DNA of 64,000 nucleotides, taken from positions 56,574 to 120,573 of the IMG/VR virus record IMGVR_UViG_3300046820_002137, one strand, 5' to 3'. How positions within the stretch are numbered: position 1 is the stretch's first letter; each line of letters opens with the position of its first letter. The notes beneath the pieces were generated by a model, which ran no database searches, was not told the DNA's origin, and saw only the letters and a program-made list of their open reading frames with translations. The stretch is from a virus. The position numbers and the translations under genes were made by a program. This document shows positions 36,632 to 64,000 of this stretch, piece by piece.

Positions 36632-36647
36632 ATTTGATTATAAATAT

Positions 36648-40332: not shown

Positions 40333-40383
40333 ATAAATATTTGAGAAAAAACCAAAATTCTTGACTTTGTATCAAGTATTTAT
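40333..40383. promoter_or_regulatory. divergent pair of TATTTAT elements (sheath on minus, RHH gene on plus)
   Basis: ataaata at 40333-40339 and tatttat at 40377-40383. Confidence 0.6.
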
Positions 40384-44096: not shown

Positions 44097-44133
44097 GTCT
44101 AAAATGAGATATTTATATCTATAAAATATCTTG

Positions 44134-49307: not shown

Positions 49308-49384
49308 AATTGATTGGTTTATTGGCTGCCGCGAAATTACGACATTTACCTTTGTATCAATTATAAGTATTTCTTAATTAAAAA

Positions 49385-50014
49385 TCAAAGTTGTTGGAAA
49401 TACTTTTGTATTCTTTGACTTAATCTAACTCTTGGGTCATTTTCATTTCGACCCGTGACATTATACGGAACAATAAAACCAAAACTTAAAAAAACTCTTC
49501 TTGAATTAAATTCATTTGTCCAATGTTTGTAAAGAGAAGCTTCAAATCCATAAAGGTCTCGTTGTTCAACGGGGACATATGTTTTATCAATGTGTAGATT
49601 ATAATCTTCAGATAAAACACTAACATTACATTTGTAATTTATATGTCCTTCGATTGATGCATCGTAATGTGGGTCAATTTTTCCACCCTTATTCATATCA
49701 ACCGCCTGTAAGAACATATGTTCTTTTGGTAATTTAATTGTTTTAGAAATTCTATCTATGATATTAATAATAAAGTCGGGGACGGGTTCTTTTTTAACCT
49801 CACCCACCGACTGAAAATTTGTTATATAATTTGTATATTCTGTTTGAGAAATATCAAAAATATATGAATTACCATTAAGGGTTTTTGAAAGTTCTGCCAA
49901 ATGGTGATTTGCTTTAAATTCTTGATTATTTAAAGTATCAATCCATTTTAATATGTCATTAACTTCTTTATGACTTATAAAATTTTTAATTATTTTATAA
50001 TCTTCAGACCCCAT
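49385..50014 (-). CDS. 2OG-Fe(II) dioxygenase (prolyl-hydroxylase-like fold)
   Basis: IIKNFIS..E N-terminus, GGKIDPHYD (HxD), distal KH, RRVFLSFG (2OG-binding R). Confidence 0.75.
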   Translation of the reverse strand: MGSEDYKIIKNFISHKEVNDILKWIDTLNNQEFKANHHLAELSKTLNGNSYIFDISQTEYTNYITNFQSVGEVKKEPVPDFIINIIDRISKTIKLPKEHMFLQAVDMNKGGKIDPHYDASIEGHINYKCNVSVLSEDYNLHIDKTYVPVEQRDLYGFEASLYKHWTNEFNSRRVFLSFGFIVPYNVTGRNENDPRVRLSQRIQKYFQQL

Positions 50015-50238
50015 TTGTTAAGAAACTCTTTTGGACCTATTTCTAATTCCATAATAGATAAGTTTTTCTTATCGTAAATGGCTCTCATCTTTGATTCCTC
50101 TCCCGCCATTGAACAAAACCAATGTGTTGCCGGTTCTTCCCCTGTTGGGGATACTGGAATTTTCATTACGTTTTTAGTAACCCAAGATTCTCTTACTTGT
50201 TCTACTTTATCATTTTCTGTTAAAATATTAATTCTCAT
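49990..50238 (-). CDS. hypothetical protein (82 aa)
   Basis: Tightly packed between fibre and oxygenase genes; SPTGEEPATHW segment. Confidence 0.6.
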   Translation of the reverse strand: MRINILTENDKVEQVRESWVTKNVMKIPVSPTGEEPATHWFCSMAGEESKMRAIYDKKNLSIMELEIGPKEFLNKWGLKIIK

Positions 50239-50242
50239 TTTA

Positions 50243-52726
50243 TTATGGATTATATGGTCCGTTTATGTTTGTTGAGACGTACCAAGTTACTGTGTCCCAA
50301 TCTAAAGTTGTTATAACATCATATCCGTCTCTTGTTTTTTGGATTGTGCAATTTGCCGTTGTATAAACAAGTGGTTCATCTGAAACAGAATCGACTGTTA
50401 TTACTAAATCTTCCGCTCCGTCAAACTGAACCGCACTTATAGTAATTTGGTCTCCAACTAAATATTCAGTTCCCGCAGATAATATTGTTACAGTAGTTAC
50501 AATATTACCTGAAACAGTTACCTCAAATTCCGCACCTGTTCCGTGACCTGTTGTAGTTGTTTGCGTCACAGAAAAAGTTGAATCTGTTGCCCCACTTGGA
50601 GTGGTATTAGAAATTGTTACTACGTTTCCTTGAAGGGTTGTGAAATTAATATTGTTAAGTCCGTTAACCTTAACATCGTTTAATTGAAAATAGTATCCGA
50701 CCGTATTATTTGCAAAATTATCCTCAACGTAGTTATTATAAAAATACTCACCAATATTGTTGTCATAGAAATTATTTCCGATTCTATTACCTCTATAACT
50801 TCCTCCACCAAAACCAAATCCATCCCCAACTTCATTACTAAAAAAACCAATTCCAATAGTATTGTATCTAAATTGTCCTTTACAAGTATTCAGAGCGAAA
50901 AAATCACCGAAAGTATTATTCGTTACATCTCCACTAAAAACGTTAGCGGCACATCCGAATGCGACGTTATTATTGTCAAAATCAGCAAAAGTTTCGTTTC
51001 CTTTAAAATCGGTTTTAATTGTGTTATTCTGAAAACCTTTACGAATATTGTTACCTTTAAAATTGTTCATTATTTCGTTACTTACGAAATTATTATCCCC
51101 CATATCCTCAGAGTTACCTATAGTACAAGTATTGAAATCATTCATTATTGTATTGTTAGCAAAAACACTGTAAATGTTATTTTGATAAAAATCATTTAAA
51201 ATGTTATTATTATTAAATGTTACTCTAATTGTATTACTATTAAAATTATACCCGATTCTATTAAACTCAAAATCTCCTGACCCAATATTCGTACTATCAC
51301 CTATTGTACTATTCTCAAAATAGTCACCAATAATATTGTTTTCAAATCTTGCATATGTTGTAATACCATTATATCCGTTTCCGATTAAATTACCAATAAA
51401 GTTTGAATAAACATTATTATTATTATATCCGTTTCCAATATCGTTTTTATAGAAATCATCATAAATGTTATTATTATTAAATTGATTTCCTATCTCATTA
51501 TTTTGAAAGTCTCCATTAGTCCAAACATTATTTTGAAAGTCATTTCCAATATTGTTTCTGTAAAAAGACCCTCCGAGTAAAATATTAAAATCAAAATCAC
51601 TACCAATTCTATTATTGTTAAAATTAGCCGTGATATAATTGTTATTAAAAAAATCTCCAATTATATTTCCATCAAAATCATCATTTGTTGAGTTATTATA
51701 AAATCTATCACCTATTTGATTACTGTCACAATCATCATTAAATGTGTTATTATAAGAACCATTTCCAATTCTGTTATTAAGGAATGAACCCGATATAAAC
51801 ACATTATTTGCCAATAAAAATTCTCCGGTATTGTTTTCTAAATATAGATTGGCTTGGTCACCGATATAGTTATTTACTACAGAACTATCCACCAATGCAT
51901 CTCCAAATGTTGTGTATTCATTAAATTCATTTGCTCTTACATTTGGTTGGTGATAACTCATTATACCATCGTCAGATGCGGAATAATAAGGAGCACTATC
52001 AGTTCCACTTATTGTTACACCTGATATAATTGCTAAAGAATCACTATCAACTGATATAACTTCGAAAAACGCGGGATTTAAATTTGGTATCGCAATAATT
52101 GACCCGCTTGAAATATTAGAATTAAATGTAGTACCTGTGTTACCGTACAATATACCAGTAGTTCCTGTAATACCACTTATTCCTATAAGTCCCGCTAGTG
52201 GACTATTTTCATTATATGAATATCCTCGATATCTTTTGAACAAAATAGTTCTGTGGTCATAGTCAGTTCTGTTATTAAAATTATCAATTCTTTCAGTAAT
52301 TCTACCAAATGCAGGTCCCGCAGTATGTTCAGTTGAGTTAAAACTATAGTCGTATTTTATTTTATCAAATGGAAATTCAGGTTGGAATGCATCTATAGAT
52401 ATAGTATTTGCAGACGTTGCCAAAACAACAATAGGTGATACAGTATCGGCGCTTTTATATATTCCCGTAGTAATTGGGTCTTTTACATTATTATAATCTG
52501 GCTGGTCATAACAAGTTCTAAAGTCGGTTATGACATAATAACTTCCCGTGTTTAATGTCTCACCAGTAATTTTATCAACAAATTCAGAGTAAGTTACCTC
52601 AACTGTTGAGTTAGAAGTTATAGCCGAAATTGCTCCTTGATATGTTGTCCCTTCATCAACAAATGGAAATATACTTGTTGAATTTGGGGTACCTAAAGGT
52701 AATTCTGAAATTTTTACGTTAGCCAT
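50243..52726 (-). CDS. tail fibre/spike-like protein with Asn-rich beta-solenoid repeats (827 aa)
   Basis: MANVKISELP N-terminus; many F-x-x-N-x-I-G-N repeats of about 9 aa; C-terminal GTGAEFEVTV...G..Y.VGD.ITI module. Confidence 0.7.
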   Translation of the reverse strand: MANVKISELPLGTPNSTSIFPFVDEGTTYQGAISAITSNSTVEVTYSEFVDKITGETLNTGSYYVITDFRTCYDQPDYNNVKDPITTGIYKSADTVSPIVVLATSANTISIDAFQPEFPFDKIKYDYSFNSTEHTAGPAFGRITERIDNFNNRTDYDHRTILFKRYRGYSYNENSPLAGLIGISGITGTTGILYGNTGTTFNSNISSGSIIAIPNLNPAFFEVISVDSDSLAIISGVTISGTDSAPYYSASDDGIMSYHQPNVRANEFNEYTTFGDALVDSSVVNNYIGDQANLYLENNTGEFLLANNVFISGSFLNNRIGNGSYNNTFNDDCDSNQIGDRFYNNSTNDDFDGNIIGDFFNNNYITANFNNNRIGSDFDFNILLGGSFYRNNIGNDFQNNVWTNGDFQNNEIGNQFNNNNIYDDFYKNDIGNGYNNNNVYSNFIGNLIGNGYNGITTYARFENNIIGDYFENSTIGDSTNIGSGDFEFNRIGYNFNSNTIRVTFNNNNILNDFYQNNIYSVFANNTIMNDFNTCTIGNSEDMGDNNFVSNEIMNNFKGNNIRKGFQNNTIKTDFKGNETFADFDNNNVAFGCAANVFSGDVTNNTFGDFFALNTCKGQFRYNTIGIGFFSNEVGDGFGFGGGSYRGNRIGNNFYDNNIGEYFYNNYVEDNFANNTVGYYFQLNDVKVNGLNNINFTTLQGNVVTISNTTPSGATDSTFSVTQTTTTGHGTGAEFEVTVSGNIVTTVTILSAGTEYLVGDQITISAVQFDGAEDLVITVDSVSDEPLVYTTANCTIQKTRDGYDVITTLDWDTVTWYVSTNINGPYNP
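50680..51810 (-). repeat. coding tandem repeat, about 9/18-aa N-x-I-G-N/D-x-F units
   Basis: For example FNNNRIGSDFDFN, FYRNNIGNDFQNN, FQNNEIGNQFNNN. Confidence 0.8.
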
Positions 52727-52775
52727 TTTTAATTTTATTTATAAATATCTTTTATTTTTTTGATTAATTTTTTAT

Positions 52776-55085
52776 TTAACAAGGTCCTGTAAATGTGAGA
52801 GGGAAGTCACAATCGAATGCTACTGAACCACCAGGTCCTGTTAATACGTATGTGTAAGTTCCGTTAGATGACACTTGACCAACAATACTTGTTGCAAGAT
52901 GAATATCTGTAATAGTATCACCAACCTGTATTTGTAAAGTTTCTGAAGTTTCGGTTAATTGTAATGTGTTAGAATTTATGGATGTTCCTCCATCCCACAG
53001 AGTTGGAACAACAATATTTCTTTGACAATTAGGGGTTATTGTTGGTGTTGGAGTTATTGTAGGTGTCACTGTTTCGGTTGGTGTTGGAGTTGGAGTTGGT
53101 GACGGTGGGGGTGGAGTTGGCCATGAACGAACATTTGTTAATAAAATTTGTATTTTTGCCGTCTGACTAGCTGAATCAGTTTCAAACCAAGTTGTTCCAC
53201 TATTAGGCGTTTGCCATCCATATGTGTTTGGAACCGCATTTGGATAAGCCGGTGATATAAAATTAAGAACAGGGTATAAATCTTGGCTGGCAGGGGAACC
53301 CTCAACTCCATAAGGTCTCTTTCTAACATAATAACTTCTTGTTCCCGCATCAACACTAGGGGAGTTTCCGAAATATGTTGGACCACCAGTGTGGAATGTT
53401 GTTGTATATCCCAACTGAACTTGTCCAACTTGATTCCAAGATTCTGCAATAAATCCTACCACGTAATAACCTGTCGGTATTGTTAAAGGAGTATTCGCAT
53501 CCACAGTTCCAAAAGTTGTAGTTAAGAAACCTGTTGCCAAATCTCTAGTGTTAATCTGATTATCATCGTTACCAATTTTTATAACACCATCCACATTATC
53601 AAAAACTGAATCATATTCTTCTTTTGTAATTTTAACCCAATCATTTTCGGTCGCTGCGGTATATTGACTAAAATTTGTAGTCATTTGGTCTTCTAAGGCA
53701 TCATAGGTTGGGTCAACATCATAAGACGGAGCTATGTTTGCCCCTGAATCCAAGAATACACTAATTGATGATGTTGCAGCGGTTGAGGTAAATGACGCAC
53801 CATAATAATTCCAACCAGCAAAAGTATATCCAGGTTGTGGAACTGCCGTAATATCATAATTTTGATTCTTAACAAGATTTACAGTTGTCTGTGAAGTATA
53901 TGTAACCCCGTCAAGTATAATTGATTGTCCTCCACTAATTTCTTGAATATAGAGTGTAAGCGGTACAGGAGGAATCGGAGAAGTTGATGGAGTTACTGTT
54001 GGTGTTGGTGTCGGTGTTTCTGTATTTGTAGGAGTTTGAGTTGGTGTTTCGCTACTTGTTGGCGATGGAGTTTCAGTATTTGTAGGAGTTGGGGTTAGTG
54101 TACTAGTTATTGATGGTGTTGGAGTTGGGGTTACACAAGGATTAAACTCAGAAACAATATAATTTCCATCCTCTGTAATTATTAAATTACCTATTTCATC
54201 TGTTAAAAACTCAGCACATGGATTTGTTGGGGTGATAGTTGGAGTTGGTGTTGTAGTCGGTGTTGGAGTTATTTTAAAAATAACGCTTTCATTTGTTGTA
54301 AAAAACGAAGAGTATTGTGGTGGGTTTACTGAAATTCCACTAAAATATGTCTGTGTCGTTAATGTACTAAAATCATCATCTAATGTTATTGTTAATATAC
54401 TTGAAGTTGAACCTTGGTTCAGTGTTAGACCTGTTGTGATTATTATTGGACTTCCTGTTGTTTCTAAAATATGGTTAAAATCCATATTTATTTCGGTAAA
54501 CACGGGAATATTAGATACTAAATTATATGTAACAACTATGGAGCCACTAGATATTACTGAAAATAAATTCAAGTCAATAACCAAATTAGGTGTTAAACTT
54601 GGTGTTATTGTTGGCGTTGGGCTCGGTTCAAAAGAAGGACACGGTGGACAAATAGAATTCGTAGGAAAATCAACACAACATGGAAAATCAGATACGTAAC
54701 AGTTATTATATAATAAATCATCCGCAATAAATGATTCTTGTATATTAATAAATAACTTTTCTCTAATTGGTAAAATTAGAACCCCTTCAGAGCTTCGGAC
54801 CATAAATTGGCCCTCATATCTACCCTCGTCTTTAGTATCGGTTGAAGTGAATTGATAATATATATAGTATTCGGGTTCCGCATTAGGGTCATCAAATGTT
54901 TTTTCGACAATTCCTGCCGGTCTTGAGGTAAACTTAGGAATTCCAGTTTCCGTGTCCACCATTGAGAAATAAAGTGACGCAACCTCAATTAATTTCATGA
55001 AGTTGTTATAGTCACTTCTACCGTCTTTAACAACTTGTAATTTTAAAAGTGGAAGGGTTGCGTTTTTCTTTATAAAGAATTCCAT
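52776..55085 (-). CDS. virion protein with BppU-like N-terminal domain and Pro/Thr mucin-like linkers (769 aa)
   Basis: FFIKKNATLP...YIYYQF..TDT..GRYEGQF anchor domain; four (PT)n tracts separating globular domains. Confidence 0.7.
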   Translation of the reverse strand: MEFFIKKNATLPLLKLQVVKDGRSDYNNFMKLIEVASLYFSMVDTETGIPKFTSRPAGIVEKTFDDPNAEPEYYIYYQFTSTDTKDEGRYEGQFMVRSSEGVLILPIREKLFINIQESFIADDLLYNNCYVSDFPCCVDFPTNSICPPCPSFEPSPTPTITPSLTPNLVIDLNLFSVISSGSIVVTYNLVSNIPVFTEINMDFNHILETTGSPIIITTGLTLNQGSTSSILTITLDDDFSTLTTQTYFSGISVNPPQYSSFFTTNESVIFKITPTPTTTPTPTITPTNPCAEFLTDEIGNLIITEDGNYIVSEFNPCVTPTPTPSITSTLTPTPTNTETPSPTSSETPTQTPTNTETPTPTPTVTPSTSPIPPVPLTLYIQEISGGQSIILDGVTYTSQTTVNLVKNQNYDITAVPQPGYTFAGWNYYGASFTSTAATSSISVFLDSGANIAPSYDVDPTYDALEDQMTTNFSQYTAATENDWVKITKEEYDSVFDNVDGVIKIGNDDNQINTRDLATGFLTTTFGTVDANTPLTIPTGYYVVGFIAESWNQVGQVQLGYTTTFHTGGPTYFGNSPSVDAGTRSYYVRKRPYGVEGSPASQDLYPVLNFISPAYPNAVPNTYGWQTPNSGTTWFETDSASQTAKIQILLTNVRSWPTPPPPSPTPTPTPTETVTPTITPTPTITPNCQRNIVVPTLWDGGTSINSNTLQLTETSETLQIQVGDTITDIHLATSIVGQVSSNGTYTYVLTGPGGSVAFDCDFPLTFTGPC
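53965..54272 (-). repeat. Pro/Thr low-complexity coding repeats (TPTPTNTETP units); further tracts at about 53030-53120 and 54585-54630
   Basis: Repeated ggtgttggagtt-type hexamers. Confidence 0.9.
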
Positions 55086-55131
55086 TAATCTATTTTACTT
55101 TATAAATATTTCTTTTTATAAAATAGATTAA

Positions 55132-56811
55132 TTAACTTTCTTTTCTTAATTCTTTACTGTAGTGTTCAAATCTATTGTGTTCCGTTGGAGTCATTAGTAG
55201 AAGTCCTCCTTTAATATTACCTTTTTTTGTTTCTTGGAACATATAACTCATCCATGTTTGCTCAAAGGGGTGGGCCCATGTTGTTTCTAAGAACATTTTT
55301 TCATTTCCTTTTTTAGAAACTATTTGGGGCCAATTACAATAATAAACTTCACCAGTCACATATGGAACACCTTCTACTGACCTAACACTATCATACTTAG
55401 CTTTAGGGGCATTTGGGTCTAATCCAATTTGAGGTAATTGTTTATTATTTGGCCAAAACTCTTCTCTAACATTTTGAGGTACATTATACCAACTCCACTG
55501 TGTTGAGTTATCCCCGAAAAATTCAGAAAAATTAAGTTTTAAAAAATCAAAACTTTCATTTTTAATTATTTTGATAGTTTTGTTGTAAAGGTCATCGACA
55601 TATCTATTAAATCCATTTCTACAAACTTCCCCCTTTTTTGGATAAAAGAACATATCATCTTCGAAGAAAAACATAAAATCTTGTTCTGTTTTTTTGAAAT
55701 GTTCCGCAATATACTGTCTTCCCCCGCATATACCTAAATTTTCTCCAGGATTTATTATTTCGAAATCATAAGCTTTACATAATTCTTCGTATCCTTCATC
55801 AGTTGACCTGTCAGTTGAATTGTTTAAAAGATATTTTTTTGGTTTTTTAATAAAATTTTCATCATAATCAATCATAGATTGGATTAAAGTGGAAAATTGT
55901 TTAGGACTATTAAACCCTATAACGTATAGTGATACTTTTGGATTTACGATTGTAGGTTGTGTTGATTTTTTACCCTCTTCTGTAAGAACCTTTATTGAAT
56001 CATTTTTTAAATCTTCGAAGAATTTACCAATTAGTCCGTTCCCATCAATCAAAGAATAACTAATTAACTCAGGATTTTTATAAGTCATAATGGTAAACAG
56101 ACTTTCTTCTGTTCCCATATACCCGTTAGTTAAAGTTTCAATAAGTAATTGATAATATATATTATTAAGTTGTGATATGGAAGACTTTTTTCCTCCGAAA
56201 AATCCACCTCTAGCCACCTTATTAACCTCAGTAGAATTACAATATGTCTTTATTTTATTATACTCAAAACCATGAATTTCAGTAGTTGTTTCATAAGGGA
56301 AACATATAAAATGAAAATTTTCAACGTAATTAGGTAGTTTTTCTAAAACATTATCATGAGTAAAGTAACCCAAATGAACTGTATTTGTAATACCAGCATC
56401 TATCCAAAATAGATAATCAGAATCAAATTTATCTAAAATTTTTGCATCGTGCAACAGGAAAAATTTTGACATAACAATTGGATTGTACATTTCCAATTTA
56501 GATTGAGTAGATTCTGAAAGCCACCCTACTTGGTTTGACCAATCACTATTATTTCGTATTTTCTGAATTTTATCAAAATATTCGTTATCTTTAAACCATT
56601 TTAAATCTCTTCTTAAGAATTGTGTGTTATCAGATTTTCTATTTTGAGAGACAAACTTTTCTAATTCTTCATCACCAAAAATTATTAAATTAGTATCAAT
56701 TTTTAATAATTCTGATAATTTTTGTAAATAATGTTCGTAATTTCTAGACCAACCTTCATTTAATTGGTCTCTACCTATGTTCCATAATCCTGTGACTAAT
56801 GTTATTTTCAT
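55132..56811 (-). CDS. two-domain glycosyltransferase: HtrL/YibB-like plus GT-A fold
   Basis: ITLVTGLWNIGR, Y...VMSK, FWIDAG, GGFFGG; second domain NLGICGGRQ, FFEDD. Confidence 0.7.
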   Translation of the reverse strand: MKITLVTGLWNIGRDQLNEGWSRNYEHYLQKLSELLKIDTNLIIFGDEELEKFVSQNRKSDNTQFLRRDLKWFKDNEYFDKIQKIRNNSDWSNQVGWLSESTQSKLEMYNPIVMSKFFLLHDAKILDKFDSDYLFWIDAGITNTVHLGYFTHDNVLEKLPNYVENFHFICFPYETTTEIHGFEYNKIKTYCNSTEVNKVARGGFFGGKKSSISQLNNIYYQLLIETLTNGYMGTEESLFTIMTYKNPELISYSLIDGNGLIGKFFEDLKNDSIKVLTEEGKKSTQPTIVNPKVSLYVIGFNSPKQFSTLIQSMIDYDENFIKKPKKYLLNNSTDRSTDEGYEELCKAYDFEIINPGENLGICGGRQYIAEHFKKTEQDFMFFFEDDMFFYPKKGEVCRNGFNRYVDDLYNKTIKIIKNESFDFLKLNFSEFFGDNSTQWSWYNVPQNVREEFWPNNKQLPQIGLDPNAPKAKYDSVRSVEGVPYVTGEVYYCNWPQIVSKKGNEKMFLETTWAHPFEQTWMSYMFQETKKGNIKGGLLLMTPTEHNRFEHYSKELRKES

Positions 56812-56823
56812 AATTAAAATTTT

Positions 56824-58326
56824 CTAAAATCTTATTAATGGTGTATATGAGCTATTAGAATAAAACATAAAACAAGAGTTTAAAAAGTAAAACCCGTCCC
56901 AACTAAACTTCATTTCGGCATCAATTGATGACATACCTATCTCTAAACCTTCCGCAAATGGCCATATATTATTTTCCACAGAAAATTTATCTCTATTACC
57001 CCACGCCTCTGTAAAAATTTTTAATTTATCGTTATTTTTAAATGCTAAAAATTGTTCGTTACAAACGTGACCAAAATCATATTTATCGGTTTCCATTAAT
57101 TTATATGGCTCAATTTTGTGACGCCAAAAACAAGTATTCCAATCGTGTTTTCCTAGAATATAATGAGGTCTTTCAAATAAAAAATCAAACTCTGAAGTGA
57201 TGAAAAAATCAATAAATGATTCTATTTTTGACTCTTTATAATCCGGACCAATTATCCAATCGGCATCAAAATAAATTATTACTTCATTTTGACTCTCCGA
57301 TGCCAATTTAATAGGGTAATATTTTAAATTATAATTAAAACACCCGTTTGGATAAAATAAAGTTAGTTCTTTTGGGACTTTTTGAATATTACAATTTTTT
57401 ATTTTTTTTGGTTTTTGGTCAGTTACGATTAAAACTTGGTGGTTCTTTGATACTTTATTTAATTTTTTGGCAAATTCAACGGAGATGTCGTAATATTTTT
57501 TACCTATTGCTATAGTACAATAAATGTATTTTATATTATTTTTTTTTTTACAGGTAGTTACAACAGGATAATCAATAACACTAGAATAAGTTGTCGCATA
57601 TTGAATTCCCTTTTCAGGTATTAGGTCAAACTTTTCCATATTTTCATAGAAATCTATGCTAGGATTTCTTTCAAACCTACTATAGTCCAACCCAATTGGT
57701 TTAGTGTGATTCATTACTACTTTGTCAATAATAGCGATTTTATCTTCAGGATAATTTAATATTTTAGGCCAAATAAAATCCAACCCTGCTGCGGAATAGG
57801 TTAACTTAAACGTAAACATTAAATTATAAAATATTTCAGTTTTGAATAAAGGGGCAACAATCTCAACAAAACTTGTAAACCTAAGTAAATTTCCTCTATG
57901 TTGGGTGGTTATTAAATGAGAAATGTGTCCAGTTTGAGCTGGTTGGGATAAGTATAACTCAAAGTTTTTAGATATTTCAAAAAACTCATTTAGGTCATTA
58001 ACACCAATCGATATGTCACAATCCGGAACCCATATATACTCGTAGTTATCAAAAATTGTTTTATTATCCGAAACAATATCAAAAACCATATTGAGTTTTT
58101 CTCCTTTTTTTTCAATAAAAAAATCGGAACTTTTTTTAAACTTATTTGAAATATCACGGTTATTACCGTAATACACAACACATAAATCATAGTTTTTTTT
58201 ATCGGAATACCATTCAAGATGAAGGGAATCATCAGCAGCACAACAAATTATTATAGTACTTACTGACTTTTCACCACTATCGATGGTTTTGTTAATATAT
58301 AGTGAATTTTCTTTTTTATTTTTCAT
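56824..58326 (-). CDS. DUF707-like domain fused to a second DxD glycosyltransferase-like domain
   Basis: YEYIWVPDCD, LSQPA, FVEIVAPLF, GLDFIW, IAIID...H; C-terminal YFDAD. Confidence 0.65.
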   Translation of the reverse strand: MKNKKENSLYINKTIDSGEKSVSTIIICCAADDSLHLEWYSDKKNYDLCVVYYGNNRDISNKFKKSSDFFIEKKGEKLNMVFDIVSDNKTIFDNYEYIWVPDCDISIGVNDLNEFFEISKNFELYLSQPAQTGHISHLITTQHRGNLLRFTSFVEIVAPLFKTEIFYNLMFTFKLTYSAAGLDFIWPKILNYPEDKIAIIDKVVMNHTKPIGLDYSRFERNPSIDFYENMEKFDLIPEKGIQYATTYSSVIDYPVVTTCKKKNNIKYIYCTIAIGKKYYDISVEFAKKLNKVSKNHQVLIVTDQKPKKIKNCNIQKVPKELTLFYPNGCFNYNLKYYPIKLASESQNEVIIYFDADWIIGPDYKESKIESFIDFFITSEFDFLFERPHYILGKHDWNTCFWRHKIEPYKLMETDKYDFGHVCNEQFLAFKNNDKLKIFTEAWGNRDKFSVENNIWPFAEGLEIGMSSIDAEMKFSWDGFYFLNSCFMFYSNSSYTPLIRF

Positions 58327-58329
58327 TTT

Positions 58330-58860
58330 TTATTTTATTGCTTCCAGATTTAAACTCATTAACATTCCACTATCTTTATCCATGTGAGGTAAATATGATT
58401 GACTATAATCATCAATCTTAGAATGTTCTGTTTTTCTCCAATCATATTCTTTAACCGATTTAAATCCGATATTAATTAAATCTTCAGACAATGATTTAAA
58501 GTCCCAAGCACAATAGTGGTAATTTTCGTTGTATGTTTGACCTCCATATAGTAACCCAAGTAAAGGTTTAATATCTTTATATTTATTATAATATTCAACC
58601 ACAGATTCAAAATTTGGTACTGCAATTCTAAGAATACCATCTGGTTTTAATTTTTCATACCAGTTTTCTAAAACTTTTTTATAAACATTCCTACCAAAAT
58701 GCTCTAGTACGTGAGAACAATAAATAAGTTCAACTGAGTTATCCTCAATAGTTTCTAATTTTGTTATGTCAGTAACTATATCAACACCATTTAATTTTCT
58801 AACATCAATATTAATAAATCCTTCTAAAATTTTATCACCACAACCTAAATGTAATTTCAT
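58330..58860 (-). CDS. class I SAM-dependent methyltransferase
   Basis: KLHLGCG, SHVLEH, LKPDGILRIAVP. Confidence 0.88.
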   Translation of the reverse strand: MKLHLGCGDKILEGFINIDVRKLNGVDIVTDITKLETIEDNSVELIYCSHVLEHFGRNVYKKVLENWYEKLKPDGILRIAVPNFESVVEYYNKYKDIKPLLGLLYGGQTYNENYHYCAWDFKSLSEDLINIGFKSVKEYDWRKTEHSKIDDYSQSYLPHMDKDSGMLMSLNLEAIK

Positions 58861-59828
58861 ATATTTAATGTTTTTAAAATATTATCTATAAAAGTAAAAA
58901 TGTAATCATCTTCGTAATATTCTGGTAATTTATTATCAATGAATATAGGTTCTGATAACATTTTTTTATACTTATTGTCATCAGAATCTATTTCAATTAT
59001 TTTATCAACTACCTCATCAATAGAGTTAAAATCATGACAATTTATAAAAGAGTTTGGGTTATATCCATCCTCAAGTATATTTGGATTACCCCAAAATATT
59101 GGAATTGTGTTTGACGCAAATCCTTGTACTAATTTTTCCTGCGAGAAATACGGGGCGCAAGTTGATTGTATTTGTAGTGAAAATTTAGATTCCGATTGAA
59201 ATAATATTTTATTTGTGTAATCATTTTTTTCAGAATGTGCTCTAGCTACTCGATAACACTCAACATCATTAGTTTCAAACCCACCGCAAGACACAACTTT
59301 TTTATAATCATTTAATTTTTCAAAAATTTCCCTTCTATACGGATTTGTTGATGTCTGTATTACCGTAGCGAATTTATTTTTTGATTCTATTATTTTATTA
59401 ACGTCTTTTTTATCAGTCATCCACTTAAAAGGTTCATCGTATAATTTACATTCATCATATAATTGCCATGTTGTTGAAACTAAGAAAAATGGCATATTCA
59501 ACAGTCTCTCATGTTTAAATTCAGGATTTATCCTACCAATAACATAGTGTTGTTCTCCTTTGTTAACATAAAATCCCATGTCACTGTATTCAGAATCTAA
59601 ATATATTTTTACAGAATTAGGAAAGTCATCTTCACTTTTTCCATTTTCGTTTGTAAAATAATCAATTTCATTTTTATTAGTTGAGTGGTTAGCATAAAAA
59701 ACTATATCAGGAGAATCATTAGTAATTACTATATTATATTTTTTACTTAATATACTAATAACATAGTTTACCATGTAATAACTACAATTGTTCCAGAAAT
59801 TGGCCCTTGTTATTCTGAGTGTCTTCAT
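58857..59828 (-). CDS. GT10 family (alpha-1,3/4-fucosyltransferase-like) glycosyltransferase
   Basis: KFSLQIQS...YFSQEKL..F...TIPIFWG, NPNSFINCHDF; the usual FEN motif is altered to IQS. Confidence 0.8.
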   Translation of the reverse strand: MKTLRITRANFWNNCSYYMVNYVISILSKKYNIVITNDSPDIVFYANHSTNKNEIDYFTNENGKSEDDFPNSVKIYLDSEYSDMGFYVNKGEQHYVIGRINPEFKHERLLNMPFFLVSTTWQLYDECKLYDEPFKWMTDKKDVNKIIESKNKFATVIQTSTNPYRREIFEKLNDYKKVVSCGGFETNDVECYRVARAHSEKNDYTNKILFQSESKFSLQIQSTCAPYFSQEKLVQGFASNTIPIFWGNPNILEDGYNPNSFINCHDFNSIDEVVDKIIEIDSDDNKYKKMLSEPIFIDNKLPEYYEDDYIFTFIDNILKTLNI

Positions 59829-61240
59829 ACAAAAAATTCTAAAAGTTTAGTTGTTTCTTCATTATACCCTCCATTATCGTGTACAAAAATTGGTGGTGTT
59901 TTTTCAAAATTGACCTCCATCCTTTCTATACTAATGTTGGTTTTAGTGTTAAAAGTATTAAGTACTAATAAACACTCAGTATCAATTTCAACTCCATCAC
60001 CCGTTAGATATTCTATTTGCCAATTACCTTGGTCACATAACCATTTATTATCTCTAATAATAATTCTATCTAATATATTTAAATAATCTAATGGTTTTGC
60101 ACAATGTACTCCCGCATTTAAAAATTTAAAATCGGATTCAACACCTTTAGTTTCATATAAATGACTAACTTCAGTATTAGGCCATAAATTTTTTTCGGCC
60201 CCAAATAATACATTAGTTTTATAATTTTCCATAATTTCAGGTATCCTATGTATCCCACCAACATATCCAACATCAGTCGCGTCAAGTAATACAAAATAGT
60301 CGTATTTGTTTAAAATTTCATTTTTAATAAATTCATAAAATTTATAAATTCTATAATAAGTGAATTTAAAATAATAACTTTCATCAAGAATATTTTCTTT
60401 TATAGAACAAAACCTCAAACAATAATAATCATTTTTATCAATATCATTAAGTAATTTTCTTTCAAATGTTGGATTAAAATGTTCCGATAGGTCATATAGA
60501 AAAGTAATTACTGCAATTTTTTTATCTATTTCTACGTTGTTTATCTCTGGTAACATCATTTGTTTAATAGAATTTTTTGTGTCGGTTAATCCAGCAACAG
60601 TAGTACCGTAATTGATTAACTGTTTATAAAAATTATGTATTAATTCATTATCCGATTTGTAAGGTATTCCATGACCAAAAATTTTTACTGGAATTTTTGT
60701 GTCCCAAAAAAAAGTTAATTCTCTACCTTTCATATTTTTTATAATTTCGTCACTTCTATTATCCTTTTCTATAAACGGAAATTTAGGAAATATAGTTAAT
60801 TCATCATTAATAAAATCAAAAAACTGCTTGTGGTGAGCATTACCTCTATATTTATTTTCATATAAAAATGAAAATTCATCATATTTTGATGGGATTGAAA
60901 TAAATCCTGAATTTGAAATTTGCTCTAAAAAATAAATTAAATCCAAAGGATTAAATACATCTTCTAAAGTATGCGAACATATTGAAAAATCAAATTTTCC
61001 GTTTGTTTCCACAAAAGATAATAACTCATCCCATGAGTTTTTATCTTCTAAATTAATATTAAAAAACTTAACTCCATCTATTGATAATTCTACAGAATCA
61101 GCAGCATATTTACATTCAGGGTAAGACCAAAAGTTAGCAGATGCCCCGACATCAATTGATTTTAGATTATTATTTTTTATGTAATTTTTTACATAATCTC
61201 TTTTACCTCCCAGGTCATTGTATTCCCAATTTTTTATCAT
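59825..61240 (-). CDS. methyltransferase-like domain fused to a PLOD/LH3-type glycosyltransferase domain
   Basis: N-terminal IDVGA, FDFSICSHTLED; C-terminal LLDATDV, FGAEKNLWP, FLNAG, DQ, ID..C, PIFVHDNG. Confidence 0.72.
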   Translation of the reverse strand: MIKNWEYNDLGGKRDYVKNYIKNNNLKSIDVGASANFWSYPECKYAADSVELSIDGVKFFNINLEDKNSWDELLSFVETNGKFDFSICSHTLEDVFNPLDLIYFLEQISNSGFISIPSKYDEFSFLYENKYRGNAHHKQFFDFINDELTIFPKFPFIEKDNRSDEIIKNMKGRELTFFWDTKIPVKIFGHGIPYKSDNELIHNFYKQLINYGTTVAGLTDTKNSIKQMMLPEINNVEIDKKIAVITFLYDLSEHFNPTFERKLLNDIDKNDYYCLRFCSIKENILDESYYFKFTYYRIYKFYEFIKNEILNKYDYFVLLDATDVGYVGGIHRIPEIMENYKTNVLFGAEKNLWPNTEVSHLYETKGVESDFKFLNAGVHCAKPLDYLNILDRIIIRDNKWLCDQGNWQIEYLTGDGVEIDTECLLVLNTFNTKTNISIERMEVNFEKTPPIFVHDNGGYNEETTKLLEFFV

Positions 61241-61246
61241 GTTTAA

Positions 61247-62191
61247 TTAAATATTTATTAAATTTATAGTGTGTCTAACTCTAGATTCTCTTGATAGGTA
61301 GGTCTCATAATATTCTCTAGCATTTTTAGATATAAAGTTTAGAAAATTTTTATTATTTATTACCTCCAAAAATCTTTTTTCAAGTAATTTTGCATGAGAT
61401 TCATTACCTAATCTATCCTTATATACATCTCTTTGTTTTGGTAAATCTAGTTGTAACGGAACAGAAATATAATGATAGTTAGGAATTAAAGCCGGATTTA
61501 ATGTTGTTACAAAATCAAATCTTAAAATAGGTATACCCATAGCCATACACTCAATATCTCTATAACATAAGTCACCATTTGCAACACCACCAATAGATAA
61601 ACAAACCTCATGTTCAGATAAAAAATCAAAATATTCTGACGGTTCTATTTTTCTAGTATCTGAAAGTACGTCAGGACTTATATAATTAACTATTGGTCTA
61701 TATTCAGTATTACCTCTAAAAAACAACTTAGGTATTAATTCTGCCTTTTCTTGTCTTTTACGATAGTAACTTTCTAAGTCTACAACGTCTTGTGGGAAAA
61801 ATATCCATGGAATATATTTGTTAGCATTTTCTCTAGCATGATGGGATATTTGGTCAGGTATGTATTGGGAATAAAGAACTTTTTTTAAATGAGGATTATT
61901 CTGTTCTAATAAAATTCCACCTGTTAATTGTTCGGCCACCGATAATATCCAAAAATCACCTGAATCTGTATCTTCTATCACATATTCACATTCCATTAAT
62001 TCCAAATGTTCATATTGTCTTTTTTGTAATTGTATTTTCATTCTACTGTAGTGAGCCCCTTCATAATATCTATTCTCACTAACGTTATGACTTTTTTTCA
62101 ATTCGTCTGTTAAATCATCCCAAAATAAATTATAGTCTCTATAATATCTTGTTTGTTCGTTACATGGATTATGAATTAAAAGATTTCTCAT
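61247..62191 (-). CDS. GT-B-type glycosyltransferase (GT90/GT47/CgeB-like)
   Basis: KLFFRGN, CYRDIECMAMG.P, LIPNYHYISV, ISKNAREYY. Confidence 0.6.
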   Translation of the reverse strand: MRNLLIHNPCNEQTRYYRDYNLFWDDLTDELKKSHNVSENRYYEGAHYSRMKIQLQKRQYEHLELMECEYVIEDTDSGDFWILSVAEQLTGGILLEQNNPHLKKVLYSQYIPDQISHHARENANKYIPWIFFPQDVVDLESYYRKRQEKAELIPKLFFRGNTEYRPIVNYISPDVLSDTRKIEPSEYFDFLSEHEVCLSIGGVANGDLCYRDIECMAMGIPILRFDFVTTLNPALIPNYHYISVPLQLDLPKQRDVYKDRLGNESHAKLLEKRFLEVINNKNFLNFISKNAREYYETYLSRESRVRHTINLINI

Positions 62192-63284
62192 TTTTTATTA
62201 TTTCTTTAACTTTATTTAATGCCGATTCTATAACTTGGTGCATATCATAATATTTGTACTCTGCAAGTCTACCTCCAAAAATTATGTTTGACTCAATTTC
62301 TGATAACCTCTTATATTCGTTATATTTTAAATTATTTAATTCATCATTTACGGGATAATAAGGTTCAGTGTATTCGGATTTATATTCTGTAGGATATTCC
62401 CAAGTTATCCAAGTAAATTCTGATTCTATATTTTCAAAATGTTTATGTTCAATGCACCTGGTAAATGGAGTCTCAACATCGGTATAATTCATCATAACGG
62501 TGCCTTGATAATTTCTAACATTTTTAAACTCATGAACAAATTTTGTTGTCTTATATTCTAATTCTCCAAATTTGTAATTAAAATAAGCGTCAATCGGACC
62601 TGTGTAAATTACTTTTTTGGATTTGGAACTCCAGTAATCTCTATCTTTAAGGAAATCTATCCCTAATTTTATTTCAATACCATCTAATAATTTTTCAAAT
62701 ATTTGAGTATATCCTCCAATTGGAATACCTTGGTACTTGTCTTTAAAATAATTATTATCGTAATCAAGTCTAACCGGTAACCTCTTAATGATTTCTTTTG
62801 GTAAGTGTTTTGGTTCCTTTCTCCATTGTTTTGTAGTATACCCTTTTATCAATTTTTCGTACACGTCTTTACCAACTAACTTTATTGATTGTTCTTCTAA
62901 ATTAGTTGGCTCACCTATTTCAATACTTTGATTTTCTATTATTTTTTTAGCATCATCAGGATGTGTAATATTCCAAAGTTTAGAAAAAGTCCACATGTTG
63001 AATGGTAAAGAATATATTTCTCCTTTATAATTAGCCACAGGTCTTAATGTAAAATTATTGAAAGAAACAAATTGATTTATCCATAACCACACCTCTTCAT
63101 TAGAGGTGTGAAATATATGGGGTCCATATGAATGGATATGTATACCATCTCTATTTTCAGTATAACAATTACCACCAATATGGTTTCTTTTTTCTAAAAT
63201 CAAACATTTATACCCGAGTTTATTTAACTCATACGCACATATTGAACCAAAAAAACCTGAGCCAACTATTAAAAAATCATACAT
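62169..63284 (-). CDS. glf: UDP-galactopyranose mutase
   Basis: IVGSGFFG FAD motif, HIGGNCY, YGPHIFHT, GYTTKQW, EPYYP, GRLAEYKYYDM. Confidence 0.97.
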   Translation of the reverse strand: MYDFLIVGSGFFGSICAYELNKLGYKCLILEKRNHIGGNCYTENRDGIHIHSYGPHIFHTSNEEVWLWINQFVSFNNFTLRPVANYKGEIYSLPFNMWTFSKLWNITHPDDAKKIIENQSIEIGEPTNLEEQSIKLVGKDVYEKLIKGYTTKQWRKEPKHLPKEIIKRLPVRLDYDNNYFKDKYQGIPIGGYTQIFEKLLDGIEIKLGIDFLKDRDYWSSKSKKVIYTGPIDAYFNYKFGELEYKTTKFVHEFKNVRNYQGTVMMNYTDVETPFTRCIEHKHFENIESEFTWITWEYPTEYKSEYTEPYYPVNDELNNLKYNEYKRLSEIESNIIFGGRLAEYKYYDMHQVIESALNKVKEIIKNEKSFNS

Positions 63285-63287
63285 AGA

Positions 63288-64000
63288 TTAATACAAATCA
63301 CCAGTTAATCTTTCGCACCACCCCTTAGAGGATGAGTGAGGCCATACGACCCAATATTTAGGTTTTTTGGCAGTTTCGAATGAACGCCATACTTTGCAGT
63401 ACCCATCAGGGTCATGCATCATCATATTAATTTCACCTGGGTCCGCGTCTTTTCTATAAATTGTTTCATCATTTTCATCATGGAAAGCAACCACCCAAAA
63501 ATCATAATCTTTCTCTGGTACCTGTGTATAACCAACGTCGATACAATGTTTAAAAATTGATGCAAAATCGTTTTTCCAATCCTCTTCAGTTTCATAATTA
63601 TATGGATTTGGCGGATATTCTTTATCTAAAGTATACTGTTGAACCGCCCTTCTTTCAAATAATATTCCAGCATATTTTTCATAATCCCTTAATGTTCTTT
63701 CGGTACCAAATCCATACTTTCCATGGTCCATTGACTCCTCACCATCCATACCAAACAATGAACGATTTTTCTTATGTGAATATTCATTTCTCTTGCCCCA
63801 CTGTTTATCATCATCCCACTGTTTTGTTCTACCCTTTCTTGTATATTCATGCCATACAAGAACTTTATGGGGGTGAAATAAATCATAACCATGAGTATAC
63901 GCTCTAGCGGCAATAGAAATTTCTTCGCCATGAAAGTAGAACTCAGGGTCATGTTGAACTTCTTCCGAGAAAGAACCAACTGTAAAACAGAAATGAGCTG
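63288..64000 (-). CDS. GT60 family GlcNAc transferase (Skp1-hydroxyproline GlcNAc-transferase Gnt1-like), C-terminal part
   Basis: Frame stays open to the window edge: AHFCF...EVQHDPEFYFHGEEISIAARAYTHGYDLFHP...WHEY, then YGFGTERTLRDYE; the track's 156-aa ORF is only the tail of this gene. Confidence 0.8.
   Translation of the reverse strand, partial: AHFCFTVGSFSEEVQHDPEFYFHGEEISIAARAYTHGYDLFHPHKVLVWHEYTRKGRTKQWDDDKQWGKRNEYSHKKNRSLFGMDGEESMDHGKYGFGTERTLRDYEKYAGILFERRAVQQYTLDKEYPPNPYNYETEEDWKNDFASIFKHCIDVGYTQVPEKDYDFWVVAFHDENDETIYRKDADPGEINMMMHDPDGYCKVWRSFETAKKPKYWVVWPHSSSKGWCERLTGDLY

Follow-up and report, generated by a model that had tools for sequence, protein, structure and literature searches.

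To our knowledge, mycobacteriophages are so far the only phages shown to glycosylate their own particles. A 2023 study by Freeman et al., cited in PMC12619734, is said to have dealt with the mycobacteriophages Che8, Corndog and Myrna, in which phage transferases are thought to glycosylate the terminal tails of the phage's own structural proteins. Giant viruses also glycosylate autonomously (excerpts of PMC4691112 and PMC7019647). Examples are the capsid glycans of the chlorovirus PBCV-1, and the fibril glycans and PLOD-like L230 protein of Mimivirus. In protists, GT60 polypeptide alpha-GlcNAc-transferases are found in the Golgi of Dictyostelium and Trypanosoma cruzi and as cytoplasmic Gnt1, which acts on hydroxyproline of Skp1; these enzymes share the Pfam family PF11397 with the phage enzyme described here. 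An excerpt of PMC8724618 describes characterised GT60 members as polypeptide GlcNAc-transferases which initiate mucin-type O-glycans on domains rich in Ser/Thr. A GT60 orthologue is also carried by the Xanthomonas and Stenotrophomonas jumbo phages XacN1, Xoo-sp13, CM1 and RAS14 (47-50% identical to the 236-aa fragment of this study; 49% in the cultured phage XacN1), and the accessible part of PMC5852040 reports at least two glycoproteins in XacN1 virions.

The window analysed here (64,000 nt) forms the last 64 kb of a contig (120,573 bp) that belongs to a giant uncultured lake phage, whose host is probably a Bacteroidota bacterium. Positions 49385-64000 contain eleven co-oriented, tightly packed minus-strand genes, in which neighbours overlap by 25 nt at most and are at most 77 nt apart; all eleven were found where the first-pass annotation of this DNA had placed its run of co-oriented, closely spaced genes. 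That annotation had read the locus as a hydroxylation and O-glycosylation system for a mucin-like virion coat, and nine of its 14 domain calls were verified, three are leads and two found no support. We lean slightly towards the view that this phage glycosylates an appendage of its own virion. Soluble sugar-transferring enzymes adjoin a predicted tail-appendage protein with Thr/Pro-rich stalks, so the phage probably sugar-coats its own appendages. With a similarly small preference, we read the locus as two adjacent and separable modules, one for appendage O-glycosylation and one comprising a fibre gene, an 82-aa open reading frame (ORF) and an oxygenase gene.

Comparison with the known systems revealed both likenesses and differences. 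As with protist GT60 targets, the candidate acceptors in the phage carry mucin-like Thr/Pro tracts, and the phage GT60 resembles cytoplasmic Gnt1 in that a membrane anchor is absent. In contrast to the protist systems, the setting is a phage that assembles in the bacterial cytoplasm, where a Skp1-type acceptor is not expected, the extending enzymes vary between strains and the GT60 activity is a prediction from sequence. The likeness to the mycobacteriophages lies in phage homologues that carry a Thr-rich tract as a C-terminal tail; the differences are the GT60 with its large variable island and an acceptor that would be a baseplate-type appendage rather than capsid or tail tube, in a system known from its genes alone. 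Giant viruses likewise encode soluble glycosyltransferases that are clustered with sugar methyltransferases or joined to them in one protein, as well as a PLOD-type glycosyltransferase and clade-specific gene sets, but they are eukaryotic viruses with capsid or fibril targets, whereas the present locus belongs to a tailed phage in which the hydroxylase is unlinked to the glycosyltransferase genes. XacN1, Xoo-sp13, CM1 and RAS14 share a GT60 gene near polB and a giant Pro/Thr-tract protein (approximately 9 kb from GT60 in XacN1); their island, however, is a compact one headed by GT60 and a carbamoyltransferase.

The first gene of the island (63288..64000, minus strand) encodes the C-terminal 236 aa of a GT60-family glycosyltransferase, and is broken off at position 64000 because the window ends with the contig. 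The fragment matched PF11397 in Pfam (E 2.4e-27, 96.8 bits, cut-off 21) and phrog_24687 in PHROG (1.7e-85), and a full-length orthologue of 415 aa scored 235.7 bits against PF11397. GT60 was present as a single copy in 10/10 large relatives. A D-S-H signature, which may correspond to the metal-site (DxH/DxD-type) GT-A catalytic motif, was invariant in 10 phage orthologues; in the window, this region falls beyond the contig end. The GT60 fragment had no hydrophobic segment, and no polytopic membrane protein was identified in the cluster. Comparative genomics supported the claim of a protein-type initiator, with GT60 at the head of a block of soluble glycan-building enzymes. An observation against appendage glycosylation is that, among bacterial GT60 homologues, a Thr-rich ORF lay at most three ORFs away in only 9/63 loci, a raw count made without a background set.

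The remaining island genes, all on the minus strand, were examined individually and against a comparison set of 80 related phage loci anchored on polB. The UDP-galactopyranose mutase gene glf (62169..63284) matched PF03275 (3.9e-71) and the TIGR00031 equivalog (404.7 bits, cut-off 303.75), with an FAD-binding NAD_binding_8 match at the N-terminus (2e-22); its product supplies UDP-galactofuranose. The adjacent 314-aa protein (61247..62191), previously called GT90/47-like, is a possible GT-B/GT90-like transferase and is retained as a lead: Pfam, PHROG, NCBIfam and PDB sequence searches gave no match, its Atlas neighbours carry Glyco_trans_1_2 or Glyco_transf_90 (score 0.95-0.96), and homologues occur in 6/80 related loci. 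A 471-aa two-part protein (59825..61240) contains a C-terminal PLOD-type glycosyltransferase, as called (PF25342 at residues 316-460; 30.2 bits, cut-off 27); its N-terminal half, described as a methyltransferase, had no Pfam match, and in the related locus L055 each half has a gene of its own. The GT10-family (fucosyltransferase-type) enzyme (58857..59828; PF00852, 9e-12) and the 176-aa class I SAM-dependent methyltransferase (58330..58860; Methyltransf_11, 1.4e-7, and related models) were both confirmed, as were the Pfam assignments of GT60 and glf. The 500-aa protein (56824..58326) had been called DUF707 plus glycosyltransferase. Its N-terminal part is DUF707-like, a borderline call because PF05212 scored 24.7 bits, barely above the cut-off of 24.1, and the transferase call failed for the C-terminal half, which had no Pfam match and resembles a stand-alone ORF in three related loci. 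The island ends with a conserved gene (55132..56811) for a 559-aa HtrL/YibB-family protein (PF09612, 1.9e-17, 64.2 bits) with homologues in 47/80 related loci (referred to here as HtrL-GT); the transferase call for its C-terminal half is kept as a lead, the GT2-like Pfam match being weak and below cut-off (E 0.012).

Across the relatives, the conserved frame consists of GT60, a hypervariable island, HtrL-GT and a gene with an Ig-like N-terminal domain (N-domain), and the HtrL-GT stop codon lies within 100 nt of the start of the N-domain gene in 31/42 loci. Island length ranged from 1759 to 7935 nt. A census of 30 loci identified 115 island ORFs in 53 protein families, nearly all of them sugar enzymes; among 52/53 family representatives, Pfam revealed glycosyltransferases of the GT34, GT77, GT25, GT32, GT31, GT10, GT2, PLOD-GT and RXYLT1_C types, and the other families included carbamoyltransferase, sugar methyltransferases, DegT, NTP-transferase, GNAT and epimerase. 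No homologue of glf or of the 176-aa methyltransferase was found in the 80 related loci and GT10 had a homologue in 1/80, so the island is a variable kit rather than a single pathway, and the specific Gal/Fuc/methyl glycan put forward in the first-pass annotation is not conserved. Because the island varies among close relatives much as O-antigen loci do, its glycan product probably lies exposed and is subject to diversifying selection. Bacterial O-antigen and capsule loci are also alike in having conserved flanks around variable transferases together with sugar-nucleotide and decorating enzymes; in contrast, the phage-borne island lies beside fibre genes and lacks lipid-carrier machinery.

An unlikely alternative is remodelling of the host surface, in which the soluble transferases would modify lipid-linked LPS, capsule or O-glycan precursors at the inner membrane face; with the same low probability, the changed cell surface would, for example, block superinfection or keep progeny from being trapped, and the fibre genes would be mere neighbours. 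Loci for LOS, LPS and capsule typically contain the families HtrL/YibB, GT25, Caps_synth, GT32 and GT10, and hypervariability would suit tracking of host serotypes. However, flippase, polymerase, ligase and initiating phosphoglycosyl transferase genes were all absent from 144 island ORFs, which also contained no polytopic membrane protein (two ORFs had one hydrophobic window and the rest had none); the missing membrane segments do not exclude host-surface enzymes, many of which are peripheral and have no such segment. In five records, a search confined to tyrosine integrases found none, whereas its positive control was detected in 14/14 genomes, so classical lysogenic serotype conversion is unlikely. 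The conserved core is GT60, a family whose characterised members act on polypeptides in the excerpt of PMC8724618, and host-surface remodelling gives no part to the retained adjacency of proteins made of an anchor and poly-Thr.

These proteins are the candidate acceptors. The gene straight after the island encodes a putative appendage protein of 769 aa (52776..55085, minus strand). It has an Ig-like domain as its N-terminal anchor (residues 1-120, nt 54726-55085), variable middle and C-terminal domains, and the four Pro/Thr tracts that had been noted earlier, at residues 154-167, 273-290, 319-378 and 654-686 (nt 54585-54626, 54216-54269, 53952-54131 and 53028-53126). Pfam and PDB sequence searches with the N-domain gave no match. 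Its structure model (pLDDT 79) had as best solved matches a baseplate chain of 80alpha (Z 8.3), the TP901-1 baseplate (8.2) and the TP901-1 ORF48 N-domain (7.8), close above the Z of 6.5-7 obtained for generic Ig domains, and its BFVD matches were named as BppU, minor-tail and tail-fibre N-termini. Homologues of the N-domain were found in 56/80 related loci. A Thr/Pro-rich tract was present in 28/41 distinct homologues compared with 66/803 background ORFs; the other 13/41 lacked a tract despite intact islands. Among representatives of the best 150 of 640 clusters, a tract followed the N-domain in 89/117 that were at least 160 aa long, and it started at residues 130-170 in 57. The minimal homologues, of 169-196 aa, consist of the anchor and a poly-Thr tail alone. 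Pro/Thr tracts may also be mere linkers, and the contig holds four more Pro/Thr-tract proteins. Taken together, these data support the claim of an adjacent acceptor candidate, with a putative baseplate-type Ig anchor and Thr/Pro stalks across relatives, and the proposed synteny of GT60 with Pro/Thr-repeat genes, since the order from GT60 through HtrL-GT to the N-domain gene is kept. The term virion coat was an overstatement; the candidate acceptors resemble appendages, not capsid.

Downstream of the appendage gene lies an 827-aa fibre-like receptor-binding protein (50243..52726, minus strand). We treat the fibre call as a lead: the N-terminal 340 aa of the protein are conserved, its C-terminus varies, Asn-rich repeats are present, and Pfam and PHROG gave no match. 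Its N-terminal part has 1135 homologues, with lengths of 580-1224 aa among the matches listed, some ending in PA14 or LRR domains. The following 82-aa ORF (49990..50238, minus strand), also without a Pfam or PHROG match, overlaps the start of the oxygenase gene by 25 nt and is its constant partner, lying directly upstream in 77/80 oxygenase-anchored loci; our guess is that it serves as a fibre chaperone. The 209-aa protein encoded at 49385..50014 (minus strand) had no Pfam match, and the call of a 2OG-Fe(II) oxygenase was substantiated by its AlphaFold model (pLDDT 82.7, pTM 0.84), which has a double-stranded beta-helix fold, and by residues H116, D118, H164 and R173, which were invariant in 24 sequences and include the HxD...H triad; R173 would be the 2OG-binding residue. 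The model matched prolyl hydroxylases and AlkB homologues alike (Z 13.3-14.7), with ALKBH6, ALKBH5, ALKBH7 and ALKBH3 and the algal P4H, vCPH (5c5t), PPHD, PHD2 and DdPhyA all within 1.4 Z units. The presence of the viral prolyl hydroxylase vCPH among the best fold matches is a further likeness to the giant viruses. Assignment as a prolyl hydroxylase was unsupported, as the fold scores tie P4H with AlkB enzymes.

The first-pass annotation had coupled hydroxylation to GT60 in the manner of PhyA and Gnt1. This coupling was not supported by the distribution of the oxygenase, which tracks the fibre gene and the 82-aa ORF. The oxygenase was present in 2/5 relatives, compared with 10/10 large relatives for GT60, lay 27 kb away from GT60 in one relative and was absent genome-wide from a complete 308,574-bp relative that retains GT60; the obligatory co-occurrence of a prolyl 4-hydroxylase that marks the Skp1 PhyA-Gnt1 system was not found in the phages. 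The oxygenase thus appears to belong to a separate fibre gene cassette and not to the glycosylation island. A rather doubtful alternative for the oxygenase only is AlkB-like repair or demethylation of nucleic acid, or an unrelated rider behind fibre genes at a recombination-prone spot, in either case acting neither on the fibre nor on Pro/Thr tracts. Besides the tied fold scores of the ALKBH proteins, this would fit the 77-nt distance to polB in the window and seven polB-anchored loci in which a fibre homologue has no adjacent oxygenase. On the other side, a fibre gene lies upstream of the oxygenase in 56/59 loci that have at least 3 kb of upstream sequence, so that the neighbourhood of fibre and 82-aa ORF is kept wherever the cassette sits, and in the complete relative without the oxygenase (L058) a fibre homologue was likewise absent from the 10 kb that precede polB. 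The distal His and the Arg are also nine residues apart, which would fit the pattern of HIF prolyl hydroxylases rather than that of AlkB. No description of fibre hydroxylation as a modification of phage appendages was found in the literature searched.

Glycosylation of DNA has precedents in the T-even phages and in the recently described poly-arabinosylated cytosines. A very improbable reading of the locus is DNA hypermodification, in which the island would glycosylate hydroxylated phage bases against restriction and the oxygenase would make or edit the base. Phage glycosyltransferase clusters that make di- and trisaccharides on DNA are described in excerpts of PMC13326640 and 10.1101/2023.12.21.572611. 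A few kb separate the island from polB, one weak PHROG match was to the T-even glucosyl-HMC glucosyltransferase (phrog_842, 1.6e-4), and the oxygenase fold ties with AlkB homologues. However, the oxygenase is missing from the complete genome and follows the fibre gene, not polB, and the sole thymidylate-synthase homologue occurs in the complete relative, approximately 160 kb from the island, and retains an Asn that presumably marks specificity for uracil rather than cytosine. Neither the Tet/JBP family nor a C5-cytosine methyltransferase was found in five records, a blank that is weak for Tet/JBP because the Tet control was detected in no genome. The island also encodes sugar methyl-, carbamoyl-, amino- and acetyl-transferases, which we do not know from DNA glycans.

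A promoter-like TATTTAT motif on the coding strand links the candidate acceptor and the fibre to particle genes. It lies 16 nt before the 769-aa gene (55102..55108, minus strand) and 14 nt upstream of the fibre gene (52741-52747), and was found within 42 nt of 26/106 ORFs, including tail sheath and baseplate genes. No copy directly preceded a glycosyltransferase gene in the window; upstream of GT60 it was present in 16/24 relatives, yet 40-55 nt ahead of the start codon.

The gene content, folds, synteny and Thr/Pro-stalk enrichment seen here suggest how self-glycosylation of the appendage may proceed. The soluble phage enzymes would work in the cytoplasm of the infected cell, where GT60 would add the first sugar, a HexNAc by analogy with its family, to Thr/Ser in the Thr/Pro-rich stalks. 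In this phage the 769-aa protein would be the acceptor, perhaps along with the contig's four further Pro/Thr-tract proteins. Extension and capping would then fall to enzymes that differ from strain to strain, here glf, the 314-aa protein, the PLOD-type transferase, GT10, the methyltransferase, the DUF707-like protein and HtrL-GT, and the Ig-like N-domain, putatively of the baseplate type, would fix the appendage protein to the virion. In the second module, the oxygenase most likely modifies the fibre or aids its maturation. A more tentative and less probable proposal takes both modules together: a widespread lineage of freshwater jumbo phages would carry a hypervariable, O-antigen-like 'glyco-serotype' island beside the separate fibre cassette, in which case GT60 would start mucin-type O-glycans on baseplate-anchored whiskers and the oxygenase would hydroxylate the receptor-binding fibre; equally tentatively, the particle might then bear a strain-specific glycan brush, with whiskers of poly-Thr or Thr/Pro on a small Ig anchor, which would amount to mucin-type glycosylation in a bacterial virus.

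XacN1 makes the idea of self-glycosylation directly testable, as a cultured phage with a GT60 orthologue and virion glycoproteins reported in the accessible part of its description. If correct, lake phages of a large and abundant group would glycosylate themselves by an initiator unlike that of the mycobacteriophages, of eukaryote-like type, and a swappable kit of extenders. Glyco-engineering would gain a natural library of soluble glycosyltransferases, paired with an acceptor protein of very small size. Through the fibre-linked oxygenase, protein hydroxylation would join the known routes by which receptor-binding proteins mature. Self-glycosylation would bear on the adhesion of phages to hosts and particles, on evasion of recognition and on how mucin-type glycosylation enzymes arose in evolution.

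The first-pass annotation had described a tightly packed run of glycan-enzyme genes leading into a Pro/Thr-rich structural gene, a fibre gene and an oxygenase gene, and this description proved largely right. Eleven minus-strand genes were placed from position 64000 down to 49385, neighbours overlapping by no more than 25 nt or standing 3-77 nt apart. Family searches confirmed GT60 (PF11397), recovered as a C-terminal fragment only because the contig ends within the gene; UDP-galactopyranose mutase (glf), at equivalog level; and the PLOD-type glycosyltransferase (GT) domain, GT10, the small methyltransferase and HtrL/YibB. The match to DUF707 was barely above the cut-off, the C-terminal half of the HtrL protein matched GT2 below threshold, and the 314-aa protein had language-model neighbours only, of GT-B/GT90 families. 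Pfam searches with the isolated halves of the 471-aa (PLOD-type), 500-aa (DUF707) and 559-aa (HtrL) proteins returned nothing but one sub-threshold GT2 match; the N-terminal half of the 471-aa protein and the C-terminal half of the 500-aa protein had no Pfam match. When the PDB was searched by sequence, the oxygenase, the 314-aa protein and a profile of the N-terminal domain of the 769-aa structural protein (N-domain) drew no match, while the fibre and a GT60 orthologue drew chance-level matches only (E 0.04 or worse). In one relative (L055, 2252-3587), the two parts of the 471-aa protein are encoded apart, by genes for 210 aa and 233 aa; fusion and fission of island enzymes are therefore ongoing.

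The source contig (120,573 bp, judged 41% complete) derives from an uncultured virus, and the window, which is its last 64 kb, has a G+C content of 27-36%. The genes are those of a contractile-tail phage and encode a 1202-aa tail sheath, baseplate J, a family-B DNA polymerase, an SNF2 helicase and an Fe/Mn superoxide dismutase. The fibre genes contain SprB repeats and an M43 peptidase, a hint that the host belongs to Bacteroidota. A megablast search of cultured phages with the region gave no match and the polymerase was at most 25% identical to those of cultured phages; on sequence comparison, the phage has no close cultured relative. IMG/VR contained 280 relatives of the polymerase, and the 80 retained for analysis were 74-91% identical to it. 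Among the relatives is G001, a 308,574-bp genome with terminal repeats that was judged complete. A 2025 study describes 'moraphages', jumbo phages from freshwater that infect Bacteroidota, reach 307 kb and have four core glycosyltransferase families (PMC12619734), and these may be the lineage of the present phage. Beside the polymerase, the superoxide dismutase (44131-44907, plus strand; 258 aa with an N-terminal extension of ~35 aa) is its neighbour in 72/80 relatives. A 373-aa protein (44950-46071, plus strand) is kept there in 78/80 loci; in PHROGs it weakly matched the end of a family of head-tail adaptors (1.7e-9).

To examine the gene run across relatives, the 80 polymerase-anchored loci were searched with the proteins of the window. 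This analysis revealed matches to the N-terminal ~140 aa of the 769-aa protein in 56 loci, to HtrL-GT in 47 and to GT60 in 32, the last count being limited by the 10-kb flank used. The fibre was matched in 15 loci, the 314-aa protein and the oxygenase in six each, an 82-aa ORF in five, the PLOD and DUF707 proteins in three each and GT10 in one; glf and the 176-aa methyltransferase were matched in none. When whole records were searched, 10/10 large relatives each had a single GT60 gene, which precedes the polymerase by 4-26 kb. In the 30 loci showing both ends, the stretch from GT60 to the N-domain gene measured 1.8-7.9 kb (median 4.1 kb) and held 115 ORFs in 53 families. A Pfam census of 52 of the 53 family representatives, leaving out the HtrL-GT family itself, named nearly all as glycan enzymes: glycosyltransferases (GT34, DUF273, GT77, GT25, GT32, GT31, GT10, GT2, PLOD-GT, RXYLT1_C, DUF3431 and Caps_synth), modifying enzymes (carbamoyltransferase, FkbM/CmcI-type and other methyltransferases, GNAT acetyltransferase) and sugar-nucleotide supply (DegT aminotransferase, nucleotidyl transferase, HAD phosphatase, epimerase). 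G001 retains GT60 and HtrL-GT, along with a GT25-type protein and a Pro/Thr protein of 1103 aa. Directly upstream of its GT60 (L090, 13761-16706) lies a gene for a 981-aa DUF285 (BspA-like repeat) protein, so adhesin- or fibre-like genes flank the G001 island on both sides. Judged from gene content, the island is a fixed frame, with GT60 first and HtrL-GT last, enclosing a strain-specific kit. Thus, the galactofuranose, fucose and methyl set of the present phage is one variant of many.

Two other targets for these enzymes were considered. Remodelling of host-surface sugars by the transferases would suit the families of LPS or capsule type, but it leaves GT60 unexplained, as well as the gene for an anchor with a poly-Thr tract that adjoins the island. 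It also leaves unexplained the missing lipid-carrier machinery: a single hydrophobic window was present in each of 2/144 island ORFs and none of the 144 was polytopic, with the same result for the window cluster, and the island therefore lacks a flippase, a polymerase, a ligase and an initiating phosphoglycosyl transferase. A search of five records for a tyrosine integrase, with a control that matched in 14/14 genomes, also gave none. Glycosylation of the phage's own DNA has a real precedent in phage GT clusters (PMC13326640), yet no C5-methyltransferase was detected in five records and the sole thymidylate-synthase homologue belongs to the complete relative G001, at a long distance from its island. 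Tet/JBP was likewise absent from the five records, although the Tet search gave no match even in controls and so proves little. The G001 thymidylate-synthase homologue (L089, contig 48000-51500) keeps an Asn that we take to be a marker of uracil specificity. It is split into 109-aa and 312-aa pieces with a 240-aa ORF between them, like the intron-plus-homing-endonuclease layout of T4 td.

The candidate acceptor for a virion glycan is the 769-aa protein, which has four Pro/Thr tracts; four other ORFs of the 106 in the contig also carry such tracts. The start of the N-domain gene lies within 100 nt of the HtrL-GT stop codon in 31/42 loci. Residues 1-120 were predicted to form an Ig-like sandwich (pLDDT 79), and in an all-against-all structural search the top matches were phage chains, from 80alpha (Z 8.3), the TP901-1 baseplate (8.2), NF5 (7.8) and the TP901-1 ORF48 N-domain (7.8), with generic Ig domains below these baseplate chains at Z 6.5-7. 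Named matches in a viral model library were BppU-domain, minor tail, tail fibre, tailspike and baseplate proteins, and Pfam gave nothing consistent for the family. By a small Z margin, the predicted model suggests a baseplate-type anchor. Among 41 distinct homologues, from which those shorter than 100 aa had been dropped, 28 have a Thr/Pro/Ser-rich tract from about residue 140-155, against a background of 66/803 distinct ORFs of the same loci that includes these 28. The 13 tract-less homologues are mostly reduced to the anchor alone (122-143 aa), and several others, 169-196 aa long, have nothing beyond the anchor except a brief Cys-rich segment and Thr runs (5-8) or Thr-Pro repeats to the C-terminus. 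A profile search of 1.84 billion representatives recovered 640 clusters. In nearly all of the best 150 of these the domain is N-terminal, and 89 of the 117 representatives of at least 160 aa among the same best 150 have a tract, which starts at residues 130-170 in 57/89.

We also examined GT60 outside this lineage. The cultured phage XacN1 encodes an orthologue, ORF334, which shares 48.6% identity with the fragment and adjoins a carbamoyltransferase gene, and a giant protein with Pro/Thr tracts lies ~9 kb from GT60 in both XacN1 and Xoo-sp13. At least two virion glycoproteins were detected in XacN1, and that study suggests that the phage's own transferases make them (PMC5852040). A short acidic mini-module lies between Cys residues and Pro/Thr linkers (53900-54250 in the 769-aa protein; L002, 21589-24726; L003, 20905-24636). 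Its recurrence both in stalk proteins of the present lineage and in the giant XacN1 and Xoo-sp13 proteins hints at a stalk 'bead' common to distant jumbo phages. The proposed synteny of GT60 with Pro/Thr genes held for relatives, where the anchor-plus-tract gene follows the island, but not for bacteria in general: a Thr-rich ORF lay within three ORFs of GT60 in 9/63 bacterial loci, a raw count without background comparison, and a general pairing was dropped. Four short low-G+C contigs (L172-L175), binned as Bacteroidota, Saprospiraceae, Melainabacteria and Ginsengibacter MAGs, carry GT60 59-84% identical to the phage enzyme and are probably mis-binned phage contigs.

The first-pass annotation had further coupled the oxygenase to GT60, by analogy with the protist PhyA-Gnt1 pathway. 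The 209-aa protein was modelled as a double-stranded beta-helix (pLDDT 82.7; 24-sequence alignment) with an invariant H-x-D...H...R and had no Pfam match. Solved prolyl hydroxylases (algal P4H, chlorovirus vCPH, Pseudomonas P4H, PHD2 and Dictyostelium PhyA) and ALKBH3/5/6/7 tied as structural matches at Z 13.3-14.7; the fold and motif thus indicate an oxygenase, of a class that they do not separate between prolyl hydroxylase and AlkB. With 1922 homologues at ~68% identity, the enzyme is widespread. The PhyA-Gnt1 analogy fails on its defining feature, co-occurrence, since the oxygenase is missing from G001, which keeps GT60, and is tied to the fibre instead; a partnership with GT60 is thus not supported and was dropped. 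Of 80 oxygenase-anchored loci, drawn from 156 relatives, 77 have the 82-aa ORF immediately ahead of the oxygenase. Upstream sequence of at least 3 kb was available for 59, and 56 of these carry a full-length fibre homologue (of the 827-aa protein) there, on the same strand. Fibre, 82-aa ORF and oxygenase therefore form a cassette of their own. The polymerase is downstream in just 41 of these loci, and in one 215-kb relative distances of 27 kb and 43 kb separate the cassette from GT60 and the polymerase, respectively. In seven polymerase-anchored loci the fibre stands without an adjacent oxygenase, so the association holds strongly only one way. Pro/Thr proteins were rejected as constant neighbours, a Thr-rich ORF being present within five upstream ORFs in just 31/53 loci. 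Neither the oxygenase nor the 82-aa ORF matched PHROGs. The fibre has an N-terminus of 340 aa conserved across 1135 proteins (580-1224 aa among the matches listed) and variable C-termini, some with PA14 or LRR domains, in sequence the usual layout of a receptor-binding protein. A literature search found no report of prolyl hydroxylases acting on phage fibres. The hydroxylation coupling, which these comparisons do not support, gives way to this fibre-linked oxygenase cassette.

Upstream sequences were examined for a shared motif. The promoter-like TATTTAT occurs on the coding strand within 42 nt upstream of 26/106 ORFs; most of these are structural, with the sheath, baseplate, 769-aa and fibre genes among them, but the superoxide dismutase gene is another; sites in the window include 40333-40339, 36640-36646, 32250-32256, 55102-55108 and 52741-52747. 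Its abundance is not above chance (44 in the window versus 52.6 expected); its placement stands out. The motif precedes none of the GT genes in the window and lies upstream of GT60 in 16/24 relatives, farther from the start codon, which is weak promoter evidence for late GT-gene expression.

Mycobacteriophages already provide known cases of virion glycosylation by phage-encoded enzymes. Our literature searches found no report of GT60 in phages or of Thr-rich tail-fibre O-glycosylation by phage enzymes, the nearest work being on mycobacteriophages, giant viruses, XacN1 and DNA glycosylation only. Characterised protist GT60 enzymes initiate mucin-type glycans on Ser/Thr-rich domains (PMC8724618). 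Of the original glycosylation claim, the part that is supported, without the hydroxylation step, is a GT60-led island with an adjoining candidate Thr/Pro acceptor; on synteny and the architecture of the acceptor family, we give this reading slightly better than an even chance. A protein made up of just an anchor and a poly-Thr tail is best read as the carrier of something joined to threonine, and its fixed place after a GT60-led island makes an O-glycan the obvious candidate cargo of the poly-Thr tail.
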